From: Candidatus Multivoradales bacterium
Lineage (GTDB): Bacteria > Acidobacteriota > Thermoanaerobaculia > Multivoradales > JAHEKO01
DNA: 64,000 bases
Reading direction: 5' to 3'
Assembly: GCA_965248055.1 (NCBI GenBank)
Contig: CBDFIJ010000004.1
Coordinates: 2,624,001-2,688,000 of the forward strand
Part shown: positions 1-6,949 of the stretch, one piece after another
Layout of the letters: every line of letters begins with the position of its first letter
Position numbering within the stretch: position 1 is the stretch's first letter
Position numbers and translations under genes: made by a program
Notes under the pieces: generated by a model
What the model saw: only the letters and a program-made list of their open reading frames with translations
The model's database searches: none
Told to the model about the DNA's origin: nothing

Positions 1-204
1 GGCCGTGTTGGGCTAGCCAGTGACCACTGACCAGCGCTTCCAGTGAAAGCGTTTCTTCTTGGCCAGTTTTTCCAGTTTGCGGCGCAGGTCAGTGATCTCT
101 TGCTGGTAGTCGCGGTCGCGCGCATTAACCCCACCAGCTAGTTCGTAGGACTGCCGTATGAAGCACACGGGCAGGGGCAACCAACCCTCGGCTCACCGCC
201 TACT

Positions 205-1023
205 TCATTTCGACGATGACTCAGTCGTTTTCGTCTCCCGATCGCTCGACAAAAATTCGAATCCTGCTGGGTAGGTTTGCATCACCGCTTGAATCGAAAC
301 CATGCAGGATTTTGTATAGAAGTCGGTGAAGGTGGAGCGAGCGTAGACCAGTTCTTCGTAGAAGTCGGAGAACGAGGATCTGCCAGAAAGCATCATCTGC
401 ACGAATTCTCCCTTTTCTGTAAGGGGCAGGACACCTTCGAAGGCTCCTAACGTACGTTCGGTCAAGTGGAGCAACATTTTCAGGTCTTCCCGTTGTGCTT
501 CCAGAACCGATTCAACACTGTCAAAACGACTCGCGGCCATAGGGTCCGTATCGGGATCTAATACTTGCTTCCCAAGGTCGGAGTAGCGTGCACCGTCGCG
601 TTGTGAAATTCGCTGGAACGGTTGCGCTTCTTGGTAGAGTTTCCGAGTCGTCTCGTCAAAGACCTTGAGAGTCGGCTCGCTTTTGAGCGTTTTCAGCAAC
701 TCGTCGTAGAGGTTTAAGGCACGCTTCATGGCAGGCACGGATTCACTCAGATGGGAGAATGCGAGTCGAAACGAACCAGCGTCGGCGCCACCGTGGAACT
801 CAGCTATGTTGCCACGTTCCATAAATCGGTTGCCTTCGACCTGACGACCCACAATGTCATCGAACAATGTGTCGGTCAGCAGGAAGCTTTTCTCTAACCA
901 GTCGATCGTGACCAAACTGTCACGATATGGAACATGTCAGGCGGGGGCGTGAGCTACCGCCGGAACGCTCAAGAGAGTCGTTCCAACCAGGCATACGATT
1001 GCGATTCTCCTAATTTGGCGCAT
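205..1023 (-). CDS. Secreted protein with in-frame TGA at codon 29; candidate selenoprotein (272 aa)
   Basis: The ORF-track 236-aa ORF (TTG at 915) extends in frame through a single TGA (937-939) to ATG 1023/1026. That ATG overlaps the upstream gene's stop and has SD AAGGAG 7 nt upstream. The extension reads MRQIRRIAIVCLVGTTLLSVPAVA-HAPA-U-HVPYRDSL, i.e. a classical signal peptide followed by the TGA. A SECIS-like hairpin follows. Confidence 0.75.
905..939 (-). promoter_or_regulatory. UGA plus bacterial SECIS-like stem-loop
   Basis: mRNA reads UGA-CAUGUUCCAU-AUCGUGAC-[AGUUUG]-GUCACGAU: a perfect 8-bp stem (926-919 / 912-905) and a 6-nt loop with G at position 2 followed by U, starting 18 nt after the UGA. 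This fits the general bacterial SECIS model. Confidence 0.7.
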
Positions 1024-2528
1024 CATCGAACTCCTTTGCCGCCAGCCCCATTTTCTCGACTATCCAGGGCGGAGGTTGATTCAACTACAAGTGACGCCAA
1101 AAATTGTAACACAGCGCCCTGGTCGGCGATAGAGAGCGCGTCAAACGCGTTGCGTGCGGCACGAGCCTCGCCGGAGTGGTGCAGAATCGCCTCGCGCAGA
1201 GTGGTCAGGTTGCCACGATGCCCGTATGGACTGCTGCTACCCACGTGCCACAGAGGAGTTGTGAGGAACATATCGGTCGCGACGTTGTCCTGCCGCAGCC
1301 TTTCGTTGCAAAAGAACGGATCCTGGTCGTCGCAGATCCGGTGGCGCTTAAGGTCGGTGAAAGCTCGAACTACGGCGCCGTCTTCACCCAGCGGTTCTAG
1401 GCGATTGCCGAACCCCTCATAGCGTAGGTCAAAGTCGAATGTTGAGGCGACATGTTCAGGACGAAGATTCCCGGGTCGGTTGTGGGGATTGGGCTCACTA
1501 AAGATGGCCGATTCAAGGTGGAGTTCCGGGATATGGCATTTCGCGCAACCAGTTCTTGAAAACGTATGCTCACCAGCAGCCAGCGCAGCGGACTCTGCTT
1601 CGGTTGCAGGCTTTCGAGTGGGAATGGACAAAGCGGCCTGAAATAGAGTGATCGCTGTGATGTCTCCGATCGTCAACTCTTCGGAGACACCGTCTTCGTC
1701 AAAGTCCTGCTGACCGGTGCGCGGCCAGCCGAAGCGCTCGATGGCTTGCATTCCATGGTGGTGGTTCATGGCGTTGATGGTGAATTCTCGTAGGGAAATG
1801 ACCACCCCCTTGAAACTGAATGGTTTGATGACGAGATCGGGATCAATACCTTCAATATGCCGAGCGTCAACGGTACCGTCGGGACGACCAATTAAGCGAC
1901 CGAAAGAGACACCCTTTGCTGTCAGTGGTACCTCTATGTCATGACCGGCGCCAGCGGCCGCCTTCAGTACCTGCTTCTTGACCGCCAGGAGGTCGCGGGT
2001 CATTTCCCTCGCCAGCAACTCGATGGCCCCGGATCCCATTAAACCCGGCGTGTTTCGTTCATTGGATTCTTGGCTGGACACGGACGTTGTTACCGGGTCG
2101 CGAAACTGCGCTAGGACGAATGCGTTGGCAACGGAATCACCACTGCCACCCGGGGACGGCTGGTTGTGACAGCCAGCGCAAGAATTGCTGTCCGGACCGG
2201 ATGTTCTGATCACGGCCGGTGCTCCCGGGTTACGTTTGGTGGGCTTGCTATCGCCGGTGGCCATAGGCCTACCAAAGCCATCTGCGACCGTAAACCGGGC
2301 GACGAACACGTTGTGCCCATGATGCACTAGGTCGGACAACGAGAACGCGCCGCGATCAATATCCTCCTGCTCGATGTGATTGTGGAGGCCGCGTTCCACG
2401 TATTGTTCGACTTCTGCTTTTGCGGCAGGAAATGTCGAGATAGCTATCACCATTGCTGCTCCGACAATTCGTAGCAACAGTAACCAACTGTTCTCTTGAG
2501 CCGATAACGGCGTTCGCGTTCCTAACAT
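1023..2528 (-). CDS. Di-heme oxidoreductase (DHOR family; bCcP/MauG superfamily), exported
   Basis: Signal peptide, two CxxCH motifs (CAGCH, CAKCH), RNTPGLMG, FTDLKRH and TPLWHVGSSSPYGHRG-like motifs typical of DHOR proteins. Confidence 0.85.
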   Translation of the reverse strand: MLGTRTPLSAQENSWLLLLRIVGAAMVIAISTFPAAKAEVEQYVERGLHNHIEQEDIDRGAFSLSDLVHHGHNVFVARFTVADGFGRPMATGDSKPTKRNPGAPAVIRTSGPDSNSCAGCHNQPSPGGSGDSVANAFVLAQFRDPVTTSVSSQESNERNTPGLMGSGAIELLAREMTRDLLAVKKQVLKAAAGAGHDIEVPLTAKGVSFGRLIGRPDGTVDARHIEGIDPDLVIKPFSFKGVVISLREFTINAMNHHHGMQAIERFGWPRTGQQDFDEDGVSEELTIGDITAITLFQAALSIPTRKPATEAESAALAAGEHTFSRTGCAKCHIPELHLESAIFSEPNPHNRPGNLRPEHVASTFDFDLRYEGFGNRLEPLGEDGAVVRAFTDLKRHRICDDQDPFFCNERLRQDNVATDMFLTTPLWHVGSSSPYGHRGNLTTLREAILHHSGEARAARNAFDALSIADQGAVLQFLASLVVESTSALDSRENGAGGKGVR

Positions 2529-2640
2529 CAGATCAGAAACAAGTTTGTCATACTGAGGTTCCTCAGCATCGAGACGGATAAACGACCCTACTTGGCAGGG
2601 TGGAGTTTGTGCTGACTGTAAGCCTTAGGTCGTGGGAGAG

Positions 2641-4503
2641 CTACGTGCTCGGGGCTGGCGAGGACCGGGCCACCGGGTAGAGCAGATACTCGCTGTCGTA
2701 GTAGGGCGTCTGGCGATAGAACCACATCAGACGTGCCGCGGGGTCGGCGGCGAAGTCGGGGTCTGCGGTGAGCTTGGCCTCGAAGGCTTGGCGTAGGTCG
2801 TCGTCGGTCCTGAGCATCTCAGTGGCAGTGGCTTCCAGCACGTCATCGTCGTAGTACTCGGTACGGGTGAGGATCTCCAAGAAAAACCCCCATTGAAAGA
2901 AGGAATCTGGAGCCTGGGGTTCTAGGAGCAAGATCGCTAGGTCGCCCAGCGGCTGGTCGGTAGCGACCTTGAATGAACCTGGGCCGAAGGTCCGGGTGTG
3001 AACCTCGACCTCAGGTGTTCCCGGGTCGACCCGAGCGTGTCCCTCAAAGGGATTGCTGGCTCCCACCACTGATGGACTGTCGGCGTCGGCGAGTCGTGCT
3101 TGGGGGAGTCGAAGCATCGCAACTCCGACGGTGGTTGGTTGCTCGATCGCTTCTACTTCAATCCCATGGTGCTGCAGTCGCCTGGCGATGTCCGCCCAAG
3201 CGGCGGGGATGTAATAAGCGTCAGGTCGCGTGACAGACAACGCCGGTTGATCCATGTTGATCCGTTGGACACGCTGGGTTTCCGGTTCCCCCAACCAATC
3301 GATAATTTCGCCTCCGGTGATTGCAGACAATCGAACCTGAGACTTGATGGCGGCGAACTCCAACTCTTCGCCAGAGCCTGTGCCGGAGGTGAACGCCAAC
3401 GGCACGGTGTCGTTCCTAATGGCTCGATCCTCGGTGGTGGCCTGCTGCAGGCCAGTTGCCTCGGCGGCCAACACGCGCAGTACACCGCGCAGAAACACAT
3501 AAGTGCCGAGGACTCTTTGATCGTAGGGTTTGAGCGAGTGGTTCTCGACCAGGATCGTCGCCAAATGGCGAGCGTCTCCGTAGCCATTGGAAAACCGTAG
3601 ACCAGCAGTCCAACCCCAGAATCCGTCGTTGAGATCTTTTTGGTTGACCGAGAGCACCAGCGGTCCGGGAATGTGCCCTGCATGATCGAGTTCACTGTCG
3701 AGAAACGGGCGCAGCTTGCCGTTCAACCAAGAACGAATCCCGGGTGACCAACCGCCGACGTTCCAGCCGTAGGTAATGTCGTACTGATAGTCCTCGCCGT
3801 TGGTGACGTGAACGTCGATGTAAAGGTCGGGCTGATAGTCATTGATCGCTTGCACCATGGCGCGAATCTCGGGCGTATCGAGTTTGGCGTAGTCGCGGTT
3901 GAGATTGAGGTTGCGACGGTTGCTGCGCCATCCCATCTCCTCCGGTCCGCGTTGATTGAAACGATTGGTGGCGGAAAATCGCTCGTGTCCGTCGACCGAG
4001 AGGATCGGAATAAACAGAAAATTGACTTGGTCCAGCAGCCGCTCGGTGTCCTTACCACCCACGGTCAGGTCGCGCAGCAGCATCAGGCCGGCGTCTTTAC
4101 CGTCGATCTCTCCAGCGTGAATACCAGCTTGTACCAGCACCGTGGGGCGGCCGTTGGCCCGGACAGCCTCAGGAGTGGAAGCGCCACCGGCTGCGATCAG
4201 CATCCAGATGTCGCGTTGCTGGTCGCTCTTGCCTAGCGAGACCATCGACAGATTGGGCGCGGCGTCGGTTAAGCGCTGGGCGAACGCTACGGTTTCGGCA
4301 TAGTGCGGCGTGGTGGTGAGACCAGAGGCTTCGGCCGGGGTGATCCAGGGATCCGTGTCTGTGACGATCAGGCTTCGAGTTTCGCCTGACCATTCTGGGG
4401 CTGGCGGCAGGACTGAGCGGATACTGGATGACGGGTCGCCGGATGCGCTTGCTGACCCCAGGACGCCAAGAAAAACGGCTGCGAGCAGTCCCGCAGCCGT
4501 CAA
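2641..4503 (-). CDS. M14 family zinc carboxypeptidase, secreted
   Basis: IHAGEIDG zinc motif, NLNRDY and DVH motifs. Start re-placed at TTG 4503 before a signal peptide, because the longer ORF-track start overlaps the neighbouring gene. Confidence 0.85.
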   Translation of the reverse strand: MTAAGLLAAVFLGVLGSASASGDPSSSIRSVLPPAPEWSGETRSLIVTDTDPWITPAEASGLTTTPHYAETVAFAQRLTDAAPNLSMVSLGKSDQQRDIWMLIAAGGASTPEAVRANGRPTVLVQAGIHAGEIDGKDAGLMLLRDLTVGGKDTERLLDQVNFLFIPILSVDGHERFSATNRFNQRGPEEMGWRSNRRNLNLNRDYAKLDTPEIRAMVQAINDYQPDLYIDVHVTNGEDYQYDITYGWNVGGWSPGIRSWLNGKLRPFLDSELDHAGHIPGPLVLSVNQKDLNDGFWGWTAGLRFSNGYGDARHLATILVENHSLKPYDQRVLGTYVFLRGVLRVLAAEATGLQQATTEDRAIRNDTVPLAFTSGTGSGEELEFAAIKSQVRLSAITGGEIIDWLGEPETQRVQRINMDQPALSVTRPDAYYIPAAWADIARRLQHHGIEVEAIEQPTTVGVAMLRLPQARLADADSPSVVGASNPFEGHARVDPGTPEVEVHTRTFGPGSFKVATDQPLGDLAILLLEPQAPDSFFQWGFFLEILTRTEYYDDDVLEATATEMLRTDDDLRQAFEAKLTADPDFAADPAARLMWFYRQTPYYDSEYLLYPVARSSPAPST

Positions 4504-4523
4504 GAATTGCGATCGGATGAAAC

Positions 4524-4727
4524 CTAGACGAAACGAGACCAGAAGAAACCTAGCACCCCGAGTCCGACCATCGCCGCGCCGACCATGGCAAAGGTCAAGA
4601 AGGCGGCGGGATGAATCCATCCTAGGGTGATCATCTGTACCAGGATGCCGACCGCGACCAAGATTGCCGAGGTGCGAACAATTTCCCTGCCTTTGGGCGA
4701 CAAAATAGCTACCGGTCGTTCGCTCAT
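4524..4727 (-). CDS. Small 2-TM membrane protein coupled to the NapC-type cytochrome
   Basis: ATG 4727 overlaps the NapC stop (ATGA); two hydrophobic helices; 67 aa. Confidence 0.7.
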   Translation of the reverse strand: MSERPVAILSPKGREIVRTSAILVAVGILVQMITLGWIHPAAFLTFAMVGAAMVGLGVLGFFWSRFV

Positions 4728-5338
4728 TGGGCACTCTCCAACGATCCTGCGGTCCAAAGGTCAAAGTCTTCGATCTCATCCACATCATGGATCAGATCAT
4801 GACAGTCCAGGCAACTTGTTTCACCTGACGCCAGCGCATCCGCTTCGCCGATGTGGTCTTCGCCTTCCTCAAACGATCGCGCCCCCTGATGGCAGTACAA
4901 GCATTCGCGATTGCTGTAGGGGTCGTAGAGTTCGATTTTTTCCGGTGGGGTCCCGAGGTAGTGCATCCAAACGTGCATGAGCCCCTTCATCTTGGCTTGC
5001 AGGTCACCGTACATCGCGTAGGAGGTGTGGCAGGTGTAGCAGGCATGGTCCTGGTCGACCAAGTGATTTTGGTAGTGGACAGCGGGCAGGTAGTCGCTGT
5101 CGTCGATCAGCAGGCTCTTTCCGTAGTCGCCCATCTCATGGCACGACAGACAGAAGTGGGTCGATTTGGACTGCTCCAAGTGGGCTCCGGTGTTGAGGGC
5201 GGTGACCACGATGGGCAGCGCGAACAAGGCGAAAAACCCCAGGATGGCGCCGCGTCGACCTACCGAGAAATTGGGCTTAATCGCCAGGCCCAGTGCGGCG
5301 AGACCGGCGACAGCTCCGAGGAGAAGCAGAAGCTTCAT
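4724..5338 (-). CDS. NapC/NirT (CymA-like) membrane-anchored tetraheme cytochrome c
   Basis: N-terminal TM helices; four CxxCH motifs (CLSCHEM, CYTCH, CLYCH, CLDCH). Confidence 0.88.
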   Translation of the reverse strand: MKLLLLLGAVAGLAALGLAIKPNFSVGRRGAILGFFALFALPIVVTALNTGAHLEQSKSTHFCLSCHEMGDYGKSLLIDDSDYLPAVHYQNHLVDQDHACYTCHTSYAMYGDLQAKMKGLMHVWMHYLGTPPEKIELYDPYSNRECLYCHQGARSFEEGEDHIGEADALASGETSCLDCHDLIHDVDEIEDFDLWTAGSLESAQ

Positions 5339-5346
5339 CGAGCGAC

Positions 5347-5730
5347 CTAGCTTCCGTCCTCTGGGGCGGCTTCGAGCGAGCCGACCCAGGCCAGGATCTT
5401 GGCTAGATCCTCCTCGCTACCCTCCCAGGTTTTCTTGTGTTCGGTGCCATCTTCCTTGACCTCTTCCTTGCGTAGAAACTTGGTCAAGGTGGTCACATCG
5501 TCAGTGGTAAAGCCACCGAGATCGGTACTCTTCATTTTCTCCGAGGTTGCTTCCAAGTCGGCGCTGGCGACGCTGTGGCAGCGCACGCATTTGTAGGTTT
5601 CAACGAATAGTTCCTGCGCGGCTTCGGCGTCCACTTCGCCCGCGGTGATCGCTGGGGCGATTGCCATGAGCAGCGCGGCAATAGCTCCCGCAAGGGCCAA
5701 GGTCAGGTGAATACACTGGGTTGGTTTCAT
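5347..5730 (-). CDS. Periplasmic monoheme cytochrome c
   Basis: GGAG SD before ATG 5730; signal peptide; single CVRCH; candidate distal His in EHKK. Confidence 0.85.
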   Translation of the reverse strand: MKPTQCIHLTLALAGAIAALLMAIAPAITAGEVDAEAAQELFVETYKCVRCHSVASADLEATSEKMKSTDLGGFTTDDVTTLTKFLRKEEVKEDGTEHKKTWEGSEEDLAKILAWVGSLEAAPEDGS

Positions 5731-6022
5731 CGTGTGCTCCTGGTCCATTACCGCGACGTGGCAGGAATCTCTCCGTGGCACCAGTGTTTTATTTCTGCCA
5801 ACAACATGAGTTTACCCGATATAGGTTGTTGTTGTTGCTGGATGATCGGTGGCTTAAGCCGCGAAGAGGAGCCGTGGCGGATGGAAAAGGGCTAGTTGGG
5901 TGCTTAATTAGGCGAATCACATGATAGAGTCGGCTTTAGGTTGGGCTGAATGCCAACGGAGTGAAAACTCCGCCGGTGATGTATCCACAACCCCTGTTTT
6001 GTTGAGAAATGGGAGGTTCAAC

Positions 6023-6949
6023 ATGCGCTGGAAAATCTTGCTGGTTGCCGCAGTCGTCACGGTCGTAACACCGTGGGTCGCGAGGTCTGCCGAAACCGAG
6101 AATCCGGATCCGCAGACTGCGATGGAAGTCTGCGGAGATTGTCACGAAGAGTATGTCCAGGCGGCCCACTTGGGTCCTCATTCGATCTTTGAGGGATCAA
6201 AATGGAGTCTGTCTGAGGCCGGTGTTGAAGCGAACGTAGGCTGCGAAGCTTGCCATGGAGACGCAACCCAGCATTTGGAAGACGAGGGCGGTGAGGGGAC
6301 CATGTTCACTTTTGCCGATGCTCTCCCCACCGAGGCAGCGTGCTTAACCTGTCACCGGGGTAGCCACCCGCGTTTTGTTGGTTCACCGCATTCGCAGGCA
6401 GGAATGTCGTGCACCAGTTGTCACTCAATTCACAGCGCCAACCCGGCGGGACCTCCTTTGCTGCAGGCAGTGGAAGTGGCAGCGCAGTTAGCCAATGTGG
6501 GCGGCAGTTCCGCCACCTGCTACGGATGCCATCAGGAAGCATTTGTCGAGTTTGAATTCAATGAGCGGCATCGTCTGCACGAAGGGACGTTGGAGTGCAC
6601 GTCGTGTCACAACCCCCACGCTCCAGCACCCCGGGCGATGTTGACCAGTACCGCCAAAGAACCTTGTGTTAGTTGCCATGCCGACAAAGAAGGCCCGTTC
6701 ATTTTTGAGCACGGTTCGGTGGTAGTGGAGGGCTGTACCGCCTGCCATTCACCACACGGGTCGCCCAATCGCCACATGCTGGCGAGTCAAGATGGTGGCG
6801 AGCTTTGTTTCAGTTGTCACGCTGCGGTGCCGCAGTTTCACGCTGGTTTCAATCCAGCGGCTCCGCCTAGATTTGATACCACGACCAACTGCGTCAACTG
6901 TCATTCCGCAATTCACGGATCGAACTTCGATCCTTATTTCTTGCAGTAG
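6023..6949 (+). CDS. Decaheme c-type cytochrome, MtrA/DmsE/MtoA family
   Basis: GGAGG SD; signal peptide; ten CxxCH motifs counted; GPFIFEH motif and C-terminal CVNCHSAIHGSN typical of the family. Confidence 0.92.
   Translation: MRWKILLVAAVVTVVTPWVARSAETENPDPQTAMEVCGDCHEEYVQAAHLGPHSIFEGSKWSLSEAGVEANVGCEACHGDATQHLEDEGGEGTMFTFADALPTEAACLTCHRGSHPRFVGSPHSQAGMSCTSCHSIHSANPAGPPLLQAVEVAAQLANVGGSSATCYGCHQEAFVEFEFNERHRLHEGTLECTSCHNPHAPAPRAMLTSTAKEPCVSCHADKEGPFIFEHGSVVVEGCTACHSPHGSPNRHMLASQDGGELCFSCHAAVPQFHAGFNPAAPPRFDTTTNCVNCHSAIHGSNFDPYFLQ

Follow-up and report, generated by a model that had tools for sequence, protein, structure and literature searches.

A probable selenoprotein encoded beside a DHOR-type di-heme enzyme in distant bacteria

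The window analysed here, a stretch of 64,000 nucleotides from a Candidatus Multivoradales bacterium of the phylum Acidobacteriota (contig CBDFIJ010000004.1, positions 2,624,001 to 2,688,000 of the forward strand), carries near its beginning two adjacent genes: one for a di-heme c-type cytochrome of the DHOR type, and one for a protein of an unnamed family, hereafter the partner, in which an in-frame TGA very probably encodes selenocysteine (Sec). The same gene pair recurs in distant bacteria, and as far as sequence comparison goes, this suggests an extracytoplasmic redox system that has not been described before. The explanation that I favour, with a rough probability of one half, is that the two genes form a real periplasmic module, in which a specialised subclade of DHOR enzymes would be co-inherited and co-expressed with a dedicated partner and would act with it as a redox pair.

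The gene pair and its in-frame TGA

Both genes lie on the minus strand, with the 501-codon DHOR gene at 2528..1023 and the partner frame directly behind it. The junction was read from the DNA at 1021..1036 (minus strand): it holds AAGGAG at 1036..1031, an ATG at 1026..1024, the DHOR stop TGA at 1025..1023, which sits inside CGATGATG, and a second ATG at 1023..1021. A sequence-only reading of this DNA had described the genes as overlapping by TGATG/ATGA, and that is what is seen at 1026..1021: the partner may start at ATG 1026..1024 (ATGA, 4-nt overlap) or at ATG 1023..1021 (TGATG, 1-nt overlap), and the AAGGAG stands, depending on the ATG chosen, 4 or 7 nt before this start and inside the DHOR gene. 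A stop/start overlap together with an internal Shine-Dalgarno sequence conforms to the predicted pattern of a translationally coupled operon pair. The overlap itself is not conserved, because two related loci with the DHOR gene upstream of the partner, L020 on a contig of a Methylomirabilis metagenome-assembled genome (MAG) and L021 on a metagenome contig, have gaps of about 110-125 nt between the genes. The G+C content was 0.518 for the partner gene, 0.566 for the DHOR gene, 0.595 for the neighbouring M14 carboxypeptidase gene and 0.568 for the whole window.

The partner gene (205..1026, minus strand; frame 1026..208, stop 207..205) encodes 273 amino acids and reads MMRQIRRIAIVCLVGTTLLSVPAVAHAPA-TGA-HVPYRDSLVTIDW..., with no further stop until 208. 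This TGA, codon 30 at 937..939 on the minus strand, is the only in-frame TGA of the frame and is read here as selenocysteine (U30). Standard gene calling gives only a 236-codon piece of the partner starting at TTG 915, which has no Shine-Dalgarno sequence before it. Window positions 700-1200 were identical in the contigs of four DNA sequencing runs with depths of 17-61. All four runs come from one sample, which may also be the source of the assembly, and their agreement means that the TGA did not arise as an assembly error in a single run.

The frames of L020 and L021 likewise extend upstream through a TGA to a signal peptide. TGA was found at the aligned codon in all three close loci, within an identical AHAPA-U-H (...QAHAPA-U-HGVW..., ...YAHAPA-U-HGVW...), and the seven codons around it showed synonymous changes only among these three Sec loci. 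A more distant relative from the window's phylum (G298, 30% identity) has a continuous frame with a Cys at the aligned position (SAHNVW-C-HC). Among 23 family sequences fetched, 21 reach the N-terminal motif, of which 18 have Cys at this place and three have M, A or P; with G298 included, Cys occupies the Sec position in 19 of the 22 N-terminally complete relatives read. The Cys-type motifs at the aligned place comprised AHNVWCHC, AHALACR, AQAVACQ, HANACH and others.

An element resembling a Sec insertion sequence (SECIS), with a longer pairing that includes the UGA, spans 895..939 on the minus strand. Its 8-bp hairpin, AUCGUGAC/GUCACGAU at 926..905 with the loop AGUUUG, places the loop GU at nt 23-24 after the UGA (G23-U24), compared with nt 22-23 in selD of the same genome. 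The consensus fold of the three Sec loci kept a 6-bp stem, in which one pair is maintained via changes on both sides, and the Cys-type locus was without such a hairpin. In L021 one A-C mismatch weakens the stem, and the stability of the window's hairpin is not unusual (z-score only -1.02). Searching Rfam with the entire window at the gathering cut-off returned no match, and a permissive Rfam search of 840-1000 gave only a chance row for a long non-coding RNA and no SECIS model. The selD locus that served as the internal SECIS comparison (L045:1528-1530, on contig C4 of genome G000) has an in-frame TGA within KTCG-U-AAK; a hairpin whose loop is GGUC comes after it, and SelD is therefore a selenoprotein too.

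The Sec machinery of the genome was found above cut-offs, with 75.5 bits for tRNA-Sec, 340.9 for SelB, 450.2 for SelA and 347.6 for SelD, and the genome of L020 also carries tRNA-Sec. Since both genes of the pair end in TGA, recoding would have to be site-specific. The conserved TGA, the Cys homologues, the hairpin and the machinery make it very probable that the partner TGA encodes selenocysteine, and the initial description of a Sec protein holds at that strength.

The partner is a predicted helical bundle of an unnamed family

Signal peptides had been proposed for both proteins, and both N-termini indeed look like signal peptides by eye, with a run of basic residues, a hydrophobic segment and an AxA motif. 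For the partner, the predicted signal peptide comprises codons 1-25 (MMRQIRRIAIVCLVGTTLLSVPAVA; 952..1026, minus strand) and would, by the -3/-1 rule, be cut just before H26. An equivalent cut fits all full-length relatives read except one (P0036, one residue shorter), falling between A and H in the Sec and AHNVWCH types, and between A and Q or between G and Q in the AQAVACQ type. The Sec or Cys is hence predicted to be residue 5 of the mature chain (P0036 excepted).

An AlphaFold2 (AF2) model from a seven-row alignment showed a long, all-helical four-helix bundle (pLDDT 79.5, pTM 0.73), and residues 18-34 had a pLDDT below 50, the Sec-bearing segment being modelled as flexible. Foldseek found no match of this model in the PDB at E <= 0.001. 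A wide VIA-align search gave a best Z of 13.2 to designed helical bundles and other generic four-helix bundles, with neither imelysin nor Ni-SOD among the 50 matches listed, and the partner profile matched no PDB sequence below E 0.05. Judged by the model, the fold would be that of a generic four-helix bundle.

A second conserved cysteine, C241 (codon 304..306, minus strand), lies in the last long helix within SCMVSIQAVMQ; it is invariant in seven of seven close relatives and also present in most truncated family members, and the Met next to it (CM...MQ) is conserved in close relatives. The N-terminal Sec/Cys and C241 were both present in 14 of 18 full-length rows and both absent in one. Such a pattern is compatible with a selenol and a thiol that form a redox-active pair, in which the resolving Cys can change place, without proving one. 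Beyond the cysteines, E76, R139, R147 and R216 are invariant or nearly so.

Domain searches gave the partner family no name: none of 18 family members gave a credible Pfam match at E <= 1, and there was no NCBIfam match for the partner (E <= 0.1) in a release that includes many selenoprotein family models. A sequence match to the imelysin-like Peptidase_M75 family was seen in 0 of 18 members at E <= 1. A profile search of 1.84 billion representatives collected 76 clusters at E <= 0.001, 57 of them at E <= 1e-10. The seven first database homologues were all N-terminally cut gene calls of 173-236 amino acids, and in about 29 of the 76 clusters the match sets in at profile positions 37-69 and within the first 13 residues of the protein. 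An N-terminal signal peptide was absent from the 20 of these truncated clusters that were read.

Two kinds of C-terminal extension were found in clusters without a leader. In six (P0022, P0023, P0030, P0034, P0059 and P0063) the chain closes with a linker rich in Pro, a hydrophobic helix and a tail of basic residues. Two of the 76 clusters (P0029 and P0058) have a cupredoxin domain at the C-terminus (PF13473 at E 2e-12 and 1.9e-11; the PF00127 match is also above its cut-off), a fusion that ties the helical domain of the partner to one-electron transfer. Extracytoplasmic features in proteins that lack a leader suggest that in these eight, too, the gene call was probably truncated at an upstream TGA read as Sec.

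The family is thinly spread among genomes. Scans of genome contigs and of metagenome contigs yielded one locus each, and a second, word-index search with the partner profile gave eight proteins and no new names. The partner was found in two of 401 genomes of the window's phylum (with the single protein as query; the count was the same with a broad 41-row profile), in two of 251 genomes of the phylum of L020, and in one of 151 genomes of the order of G298. One of the two hits in the phylum of L020 is a remnant (genome G454, L041:1456-1716) of 86 amino acids from the C-terminal part, with no N-terminal part and no DHOR gene nearby; it is likely a decayed copy.

The enzyme is a remote relative of MauG and di-heme peroxidases

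The DHOR gene (1023..2528, minus strand) encodes 501 amino acids with a predicted signal peptide of residues 1-38, cut after AKA (by eye). It matched PF06537 at E 1.8e-11 with 43.6 bits (gathering cut-off 22), and this match covers only the last 75 of 499 profile positions, in the C-terminal part of DHOR. The two heme-binding motifs are CAGCH (C117-H121; 2166..2180, minus strand) and CAKCH (C328-H332; 1533..1547, minus strand), and C117, C120, H121, C328, C331 and H332 are invariant in 13 of 13 DHOR rows.

The sequence-only reading had placed the enzyme with MauG, MbnH and BthA, and at the level of fold its place in the superfamily of MauG and bacterial cytochrome c peroxidase (bCCP) was borne out. 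The single DHOR sequence gave 0 matches to PDB sequences at E <= 1; a profile of eight DHOR homologues weakly matched bacterial di-heme peroxidases (1eb7, E 6.9e-4; MauG 3orv, E 1.3), aligning both heme motifs and the PYxHxG region to the peroxidases. The AF2 model (pLDDT 69.7, with low confidence around 88-160) gave 23 Foldseek matches in the PDB at E <= 0.001, all 23 of them to MauG, bCCP, BthA or YhjA chains and with MauG chains on top (3orv, E 1.3e-4). With that pLDDT, and with TM-scores on the target of 0.38-0.49 for most of the 23, the match holds at fold-class level only: DHOR is a predicted member of the bCCP/MauG/BthA di-heme superfamily by fold, and a remote relative.

MauG uses a Tyr as axial ligand of its six-coordinate heme and, with an intervening Trp, this supports a bis-Fe(IV) state. 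In DHOR, the invariant H451 fell, in the weak HMMER alignment to 1eb7, at what should be the position of Met275, a heme ligand of the Pseudomonas peroxidase. This weak alignment suggests that the ligand of DHOR at this position is His rather than Tyr or Met.

Linkage of the partner to DHOR

A DHOR gene adjoins the partner in all four independent full-length partner loci (the window, L020, L021 and G298). In G298 the order is reversed and the end of the partner overlaps the start of DHOR. Across these loci, two phyla and both gene orders are represented. Neither gene is present in G314, a 98% complete genome from the same genus as the window.

Seen from the enzyme, linkage was not obligatory. 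At E <= 1e-20, the phylum sample of 401 genomes had 33 with a DHOR homologue, and among the five closest DHORs (49-55% identity) only that of G298 comes from a genome that has a partner anywhere. The neighbours of the DHOR genes in G282 and G396 are unrelated genes, and no partner was present in the fetched flanks of ten other partner-less DHOR loci (L023-L026 and L028-L033). The expectation that this DHOR clade would have a conserved partner alongside it accordingly stood in one direction, from partner to DHOR (4/4 loci), and was weakened in the other, from DHOR to partner (4/5 closest without one). One of the partner-less genomes, G291, carries tandem di-heme DHOR-type genes (L025:26-1216 and 1420-2961) and no partner-family gene.

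In a maximum-likelihood tree of 14 DHORs, the four partner-linked enzymes stood on one side of a branch with support 88/90, recovered in 90% of bootstrap trees; G298 and one outgroup sat on long branches, and one outgroup row was placed weakly beside the linked group. The outgroup row L030 (genome G049, flagged as unpublished) is part of alignment A10 and of the count of 33, and no claim rests solely on it. The partner-linked DHORs have GDSKPT, FGWxRTG and NRPG in common, whereas partner-less relatives differ at these motifs. Complex prediction for the Cys-type pair of G298, run with alignments and two hemes, scored 0.00 in both runs and is uninformative either way.

Genes and repeats around the pair

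Upstream of the pair lie an M14 carboxypeptidase gene and several c-type cytochrome genes, and downstream are unrelated genes, including an opposite-strand run with dihydropyrimidine dehydrogenase-like and amidohydrolase domains; no gene beyond the pair is conserved across the four loci. The M14 gene (2641-4788, minus strand) lies on the same strand as DHOR, and the start of its 715-codon ORF was probably called too early because it overlaps the adjoining NapC/NirT ORF by 65 nt. In L020 (89-1021) and L021 (25-813), proteins with an HExxH motif and a weak match to Reprolysin_5 (E 0.001) are encoded upstream of DHOR and on its strand. A putative metallopeptidase is hence found upstream of DHOR in all three Sec-type loci and none in the G298 locus, and the searches run gave no homology between the M14 protein of the window and the HExxH peptidases of L020 and L021. 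The cytochrome cluster of the window (4724-6949) consists of a NapC/NirT-type tetraheme protein (4724..5338, minus strand), a small mono-heme protein (5347..5781, minus strand) and a 342-amino-acid multiheme protein (5921..6949, plus strand).

A small inverted repeat upstream of the DHOR start, CTGAGG-TT-CCTCAG at 2553..2566, had been put forward as a possible operator of the pair. The repeat is present, and an operator role was rejected: perfect 6+2+6 inverted repeats occur in the window at chance level (18 observed, 15.6 expected), and this one is absent from three related loci (L019, L020 and L021), matching only L022 and L044, both of which are the same place in G000. A scan for sigma-70-like promoters over window positions 1-3000 returned 0 sites.

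How the two proteins may work together

The case for a redox pair rests on several features: Sec is used, the cysteines tend to occur in pairs, some family members are fused to cupredoxin domains, the enzyme has a MauG/bCCP fold, and the linkage is tight and recurrent. In this scheme, the flexible N-terminal arm of the partner would present Sec (Cys in most relatives) at predicted mature position 5, and the hemes of DHOR would exchange electrons with this chalcogen site. C241, or a neighbouring Cys, would be the second redox residue, so that, for example, the selenol and the C241 thiol could form a selenenylsulfide, and the partner would be either a protein substrate or an electron donor of a peroxide-linked di-heme enzyme. 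I infer export and the cleavage site, contact between DHOR and partner, which way the electrons would move, the identity of the oxidant and the physiological role of the pair.

Several observations weigh against this scheme. The DHORs of G282, G396, G291 and G050, which are 51-55% identical to that of the window, come from genomes without a partner, and with four of the five closest enzymes lacking one, this kind of DHOR can evidently work alone. Support for a partner-linked DHOR clade is moderate, with only four independent partner loci and G298 on a long branch. Sec cannot be required for the function of the family, because G298 has SelA and yet uses Cys. Two of the 18 full-length rows keep the N-terminal Cys but lack C241; in these, another Cys follows at a distance of two or four residues (CHC, CHGSC). 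In one further row (P0066) C241 alone is kept. The model gives no geometry linking U30 to C241 or to a heme, because the pLDDT of the N-terminal arm is below 50.

The alternative that survives best, itself unlikely, is a metal-handling pair, in which the arm (His1-x3-Sec/Cys5-His6, together with C241 and M242) would bind Cu, Fe or Ni and DHOR would oxidise or reduce the metal. Its parallels would be DUF1111 proteins with imelysin/EfeO, MbnH with MbnP, or the hook of Ni-SOD. Ni-SOD carries an N-terminal metal hook on a four-helix bundle, and MbnP is the copper-binding partner of the MauG-like MbnH. A predicted His at the mature N-terminus of the Sec and AHNVWCH types speaks for this alternative, as do the conserved Met beside C241 and the cupredoxin fusions, which recall those of Cup-M75 EfeO. 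So does genomic context elsewhere: according to PMC3143127, DUF1111 di-heme proteins regularly neighbour helical imelysin-like proteins in iron-uptake loci, and some EfeO members are fused to cupredoxin. Set against this is the distribution of the histidines. They flank Sec only in some subfamilies, and the AQAVACQ type lacks both His1 and His6 and keeps the Cys alone; Sec/Cys and C241 are the conserved positions, and the Sec/His metal site first suggested can therefore not be a family-wide feature.

The likeness to the DUF1111/imelysin (Peptidase_M75, EfeO/EfeM) systems also ends beyond a shared enzyme family (PF06537) and a secreted, all-helical partner: the partner is a single long bundle and not a two-domain fold, it has a Sec/Cys arm in place of a GxHxxE motif, and its family gave no Peptidase_M75 match, as described above. 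There is no Ftr1/EfeU permease near the pair, nor any permease or metal transporter next to it in the window and the three related loci. MbnH and MbnP resemble the present pair in that two genes encode two periplasmic proteins, one a di-heme enzyme and the other small and secreted; the resemblance stops at sequence, with the MbnH model TIGR04039 giving a faint match on the C-terminus of DHOR (E 0.046, 12.8 bits against a cut-off of 362.85), and with no NCBIfam or Pfam match for the partner entries P0009 and P0012 (Pfam E <= 1, NCBIfam E <= 0.1).

A carrier arm, onto which DHOR would oxidatively couple a small compound of sulfur or selenium such as thiosulfate or polysulfide, is improbable. SoxAX couples a sulfur compound onto a Cys on the arm of SoxY in this way, and the Sec or Cys of the partner likewise stands on a flexible terminal segment of low pLDDT, with E76, R139, R147 and R216 as residues that could hold an oxyanion. 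A precedent for Sec and c-type heme acting on polysulfide is MccSep (PMC13510729). The conserved Arg residues may just as well be structural, however, no Sox, Dsr or other sulfur-metabolism genes lie beside the pair in the four loci, and the cupredoxin fusions would be left without explanation.

One-off maturation, in which DHOR would make a single oxidation or cross-link on the partner in the style of MauG and pre-methylamine dehydrogenase (pre-MADH), after which the mature partner would act alone, has an equally slim chance. MauG is the top fold match of DHOR, and the gene pairing resembles both MauG-MADH and MbnH-MbnP: MauG, too, is a periplasmic di-heme c-type enzyme encoded beside the protein it acts on. 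The sequence similarity to MauG is nevertheless marginal, with the 3orv profile match given above, and DHOR is about 150 residues longer. Pre-MADH is a beta-propeller dehydrogenase with Trp residues to cross-link, whereas the partner combines a helical bundle with an arm that bears Sec or Cys; the Sec type lacks the W27 that stands beside the Cys of the AHNVWCH type, and there is no other conserved aromatic residue near the Sec or Cys. Furthermore, translational coupling in a 1:1 arrangement would be expected of a stoichiometric partner more than of a maturase.

Least probable are a chance adjacency, which is countered by recurrence of the pair in two phyla and both gene orders, and a true stop at the TGA, with a 29-codon leader ORF followed by a cytoplasmic 236-amino-acid protein from TTG 915, a reading favoured by public gene callers, which start homologues after the TGA, and by the missing Rfam SECIS match, but contradicted by in-frame protein conservation across the TGA in three loci, by continuous Cys homologues with signal peptides, and by an AAGGAG that precedes the junction ATG and not TTG 915.

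Within the periplasmic redox pair that I prefer, a more specific arrangement can be drawn by analogy, although it is itself rather unlikely: the arm may insert Sec into the active-site pocket of DHOR and thus create one catalytic centre of Sec and heme over two polypeptides, a version in trans of MccSep chemistry. MccSep shows by its structure that Sec and an adjacent c-type heme can work as one catalytic unit (PMC13510729), and the likeness extends to a periplasmic location, to Cys-type homologues and to SECIS-like hairpins within 30 nt of the UGA. MccSep differs in that Sec and five hemes share one polypeptide, compared with a separate, heme-less Sec protein and a two-heme DHOR here, and there is no sequence relation between the two systems.

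Place among selenoproteins and significance

In full-text literature searches, no account turned up of a DHOR or MauG-like enzyme that has a selenoprotein as its partner. In the compared passages of an inventory of prokaryotic selenoproteins from 2026 (PMC13188914), most families are thioredoxin-fold proteins with UxxC or CxxU motifs, keyed to Pfam or NCBIfam models, none of which matches the partner. With the families in these passages, the partner shares the alignment of UGA with Cys, a SECIS directly downstream and a likely redox role; it departs from the mostly thioredoxin-fold families listed there as a helical bundle with Sec five residues from the mature N-terminus. The partner family may already sit in a candidate list, since a groundwater-MAG study cited in PMC13188914 reports further candidate selenoproteins.

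The partner would add to the known selenoproteins a family of unusual architecture, an extracytoplasmic helical bundle with Sec near its mature N-terminus. Since gene callers systematically cut at TGA, this family is invisible in current annotation. If Sec does enter the pocket of DHOR, the pair would be a new peroxide- or oxygen-driven periplasmic selenol/thiol oxidase, or a transferase for sulfur or selenium, and the ~29 truncated clusters would be unrecognised selenoproteins, including cupredoxin-fused and membrane-anchored forms. If Sec works with the hemes of DHOR, the pair would extend the very recent finding of selenium and c-type heme as one catalytic unit.

For the enzyme, too, the pairing would matter. 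DHOR/DUF1111 proteins are widespread, but no substrate is known for any of them. For one DHOR subclade, a dedicated protein partner that bears one hyper-reactive residue would offer a hypothesis concrete enough to take to the bench.

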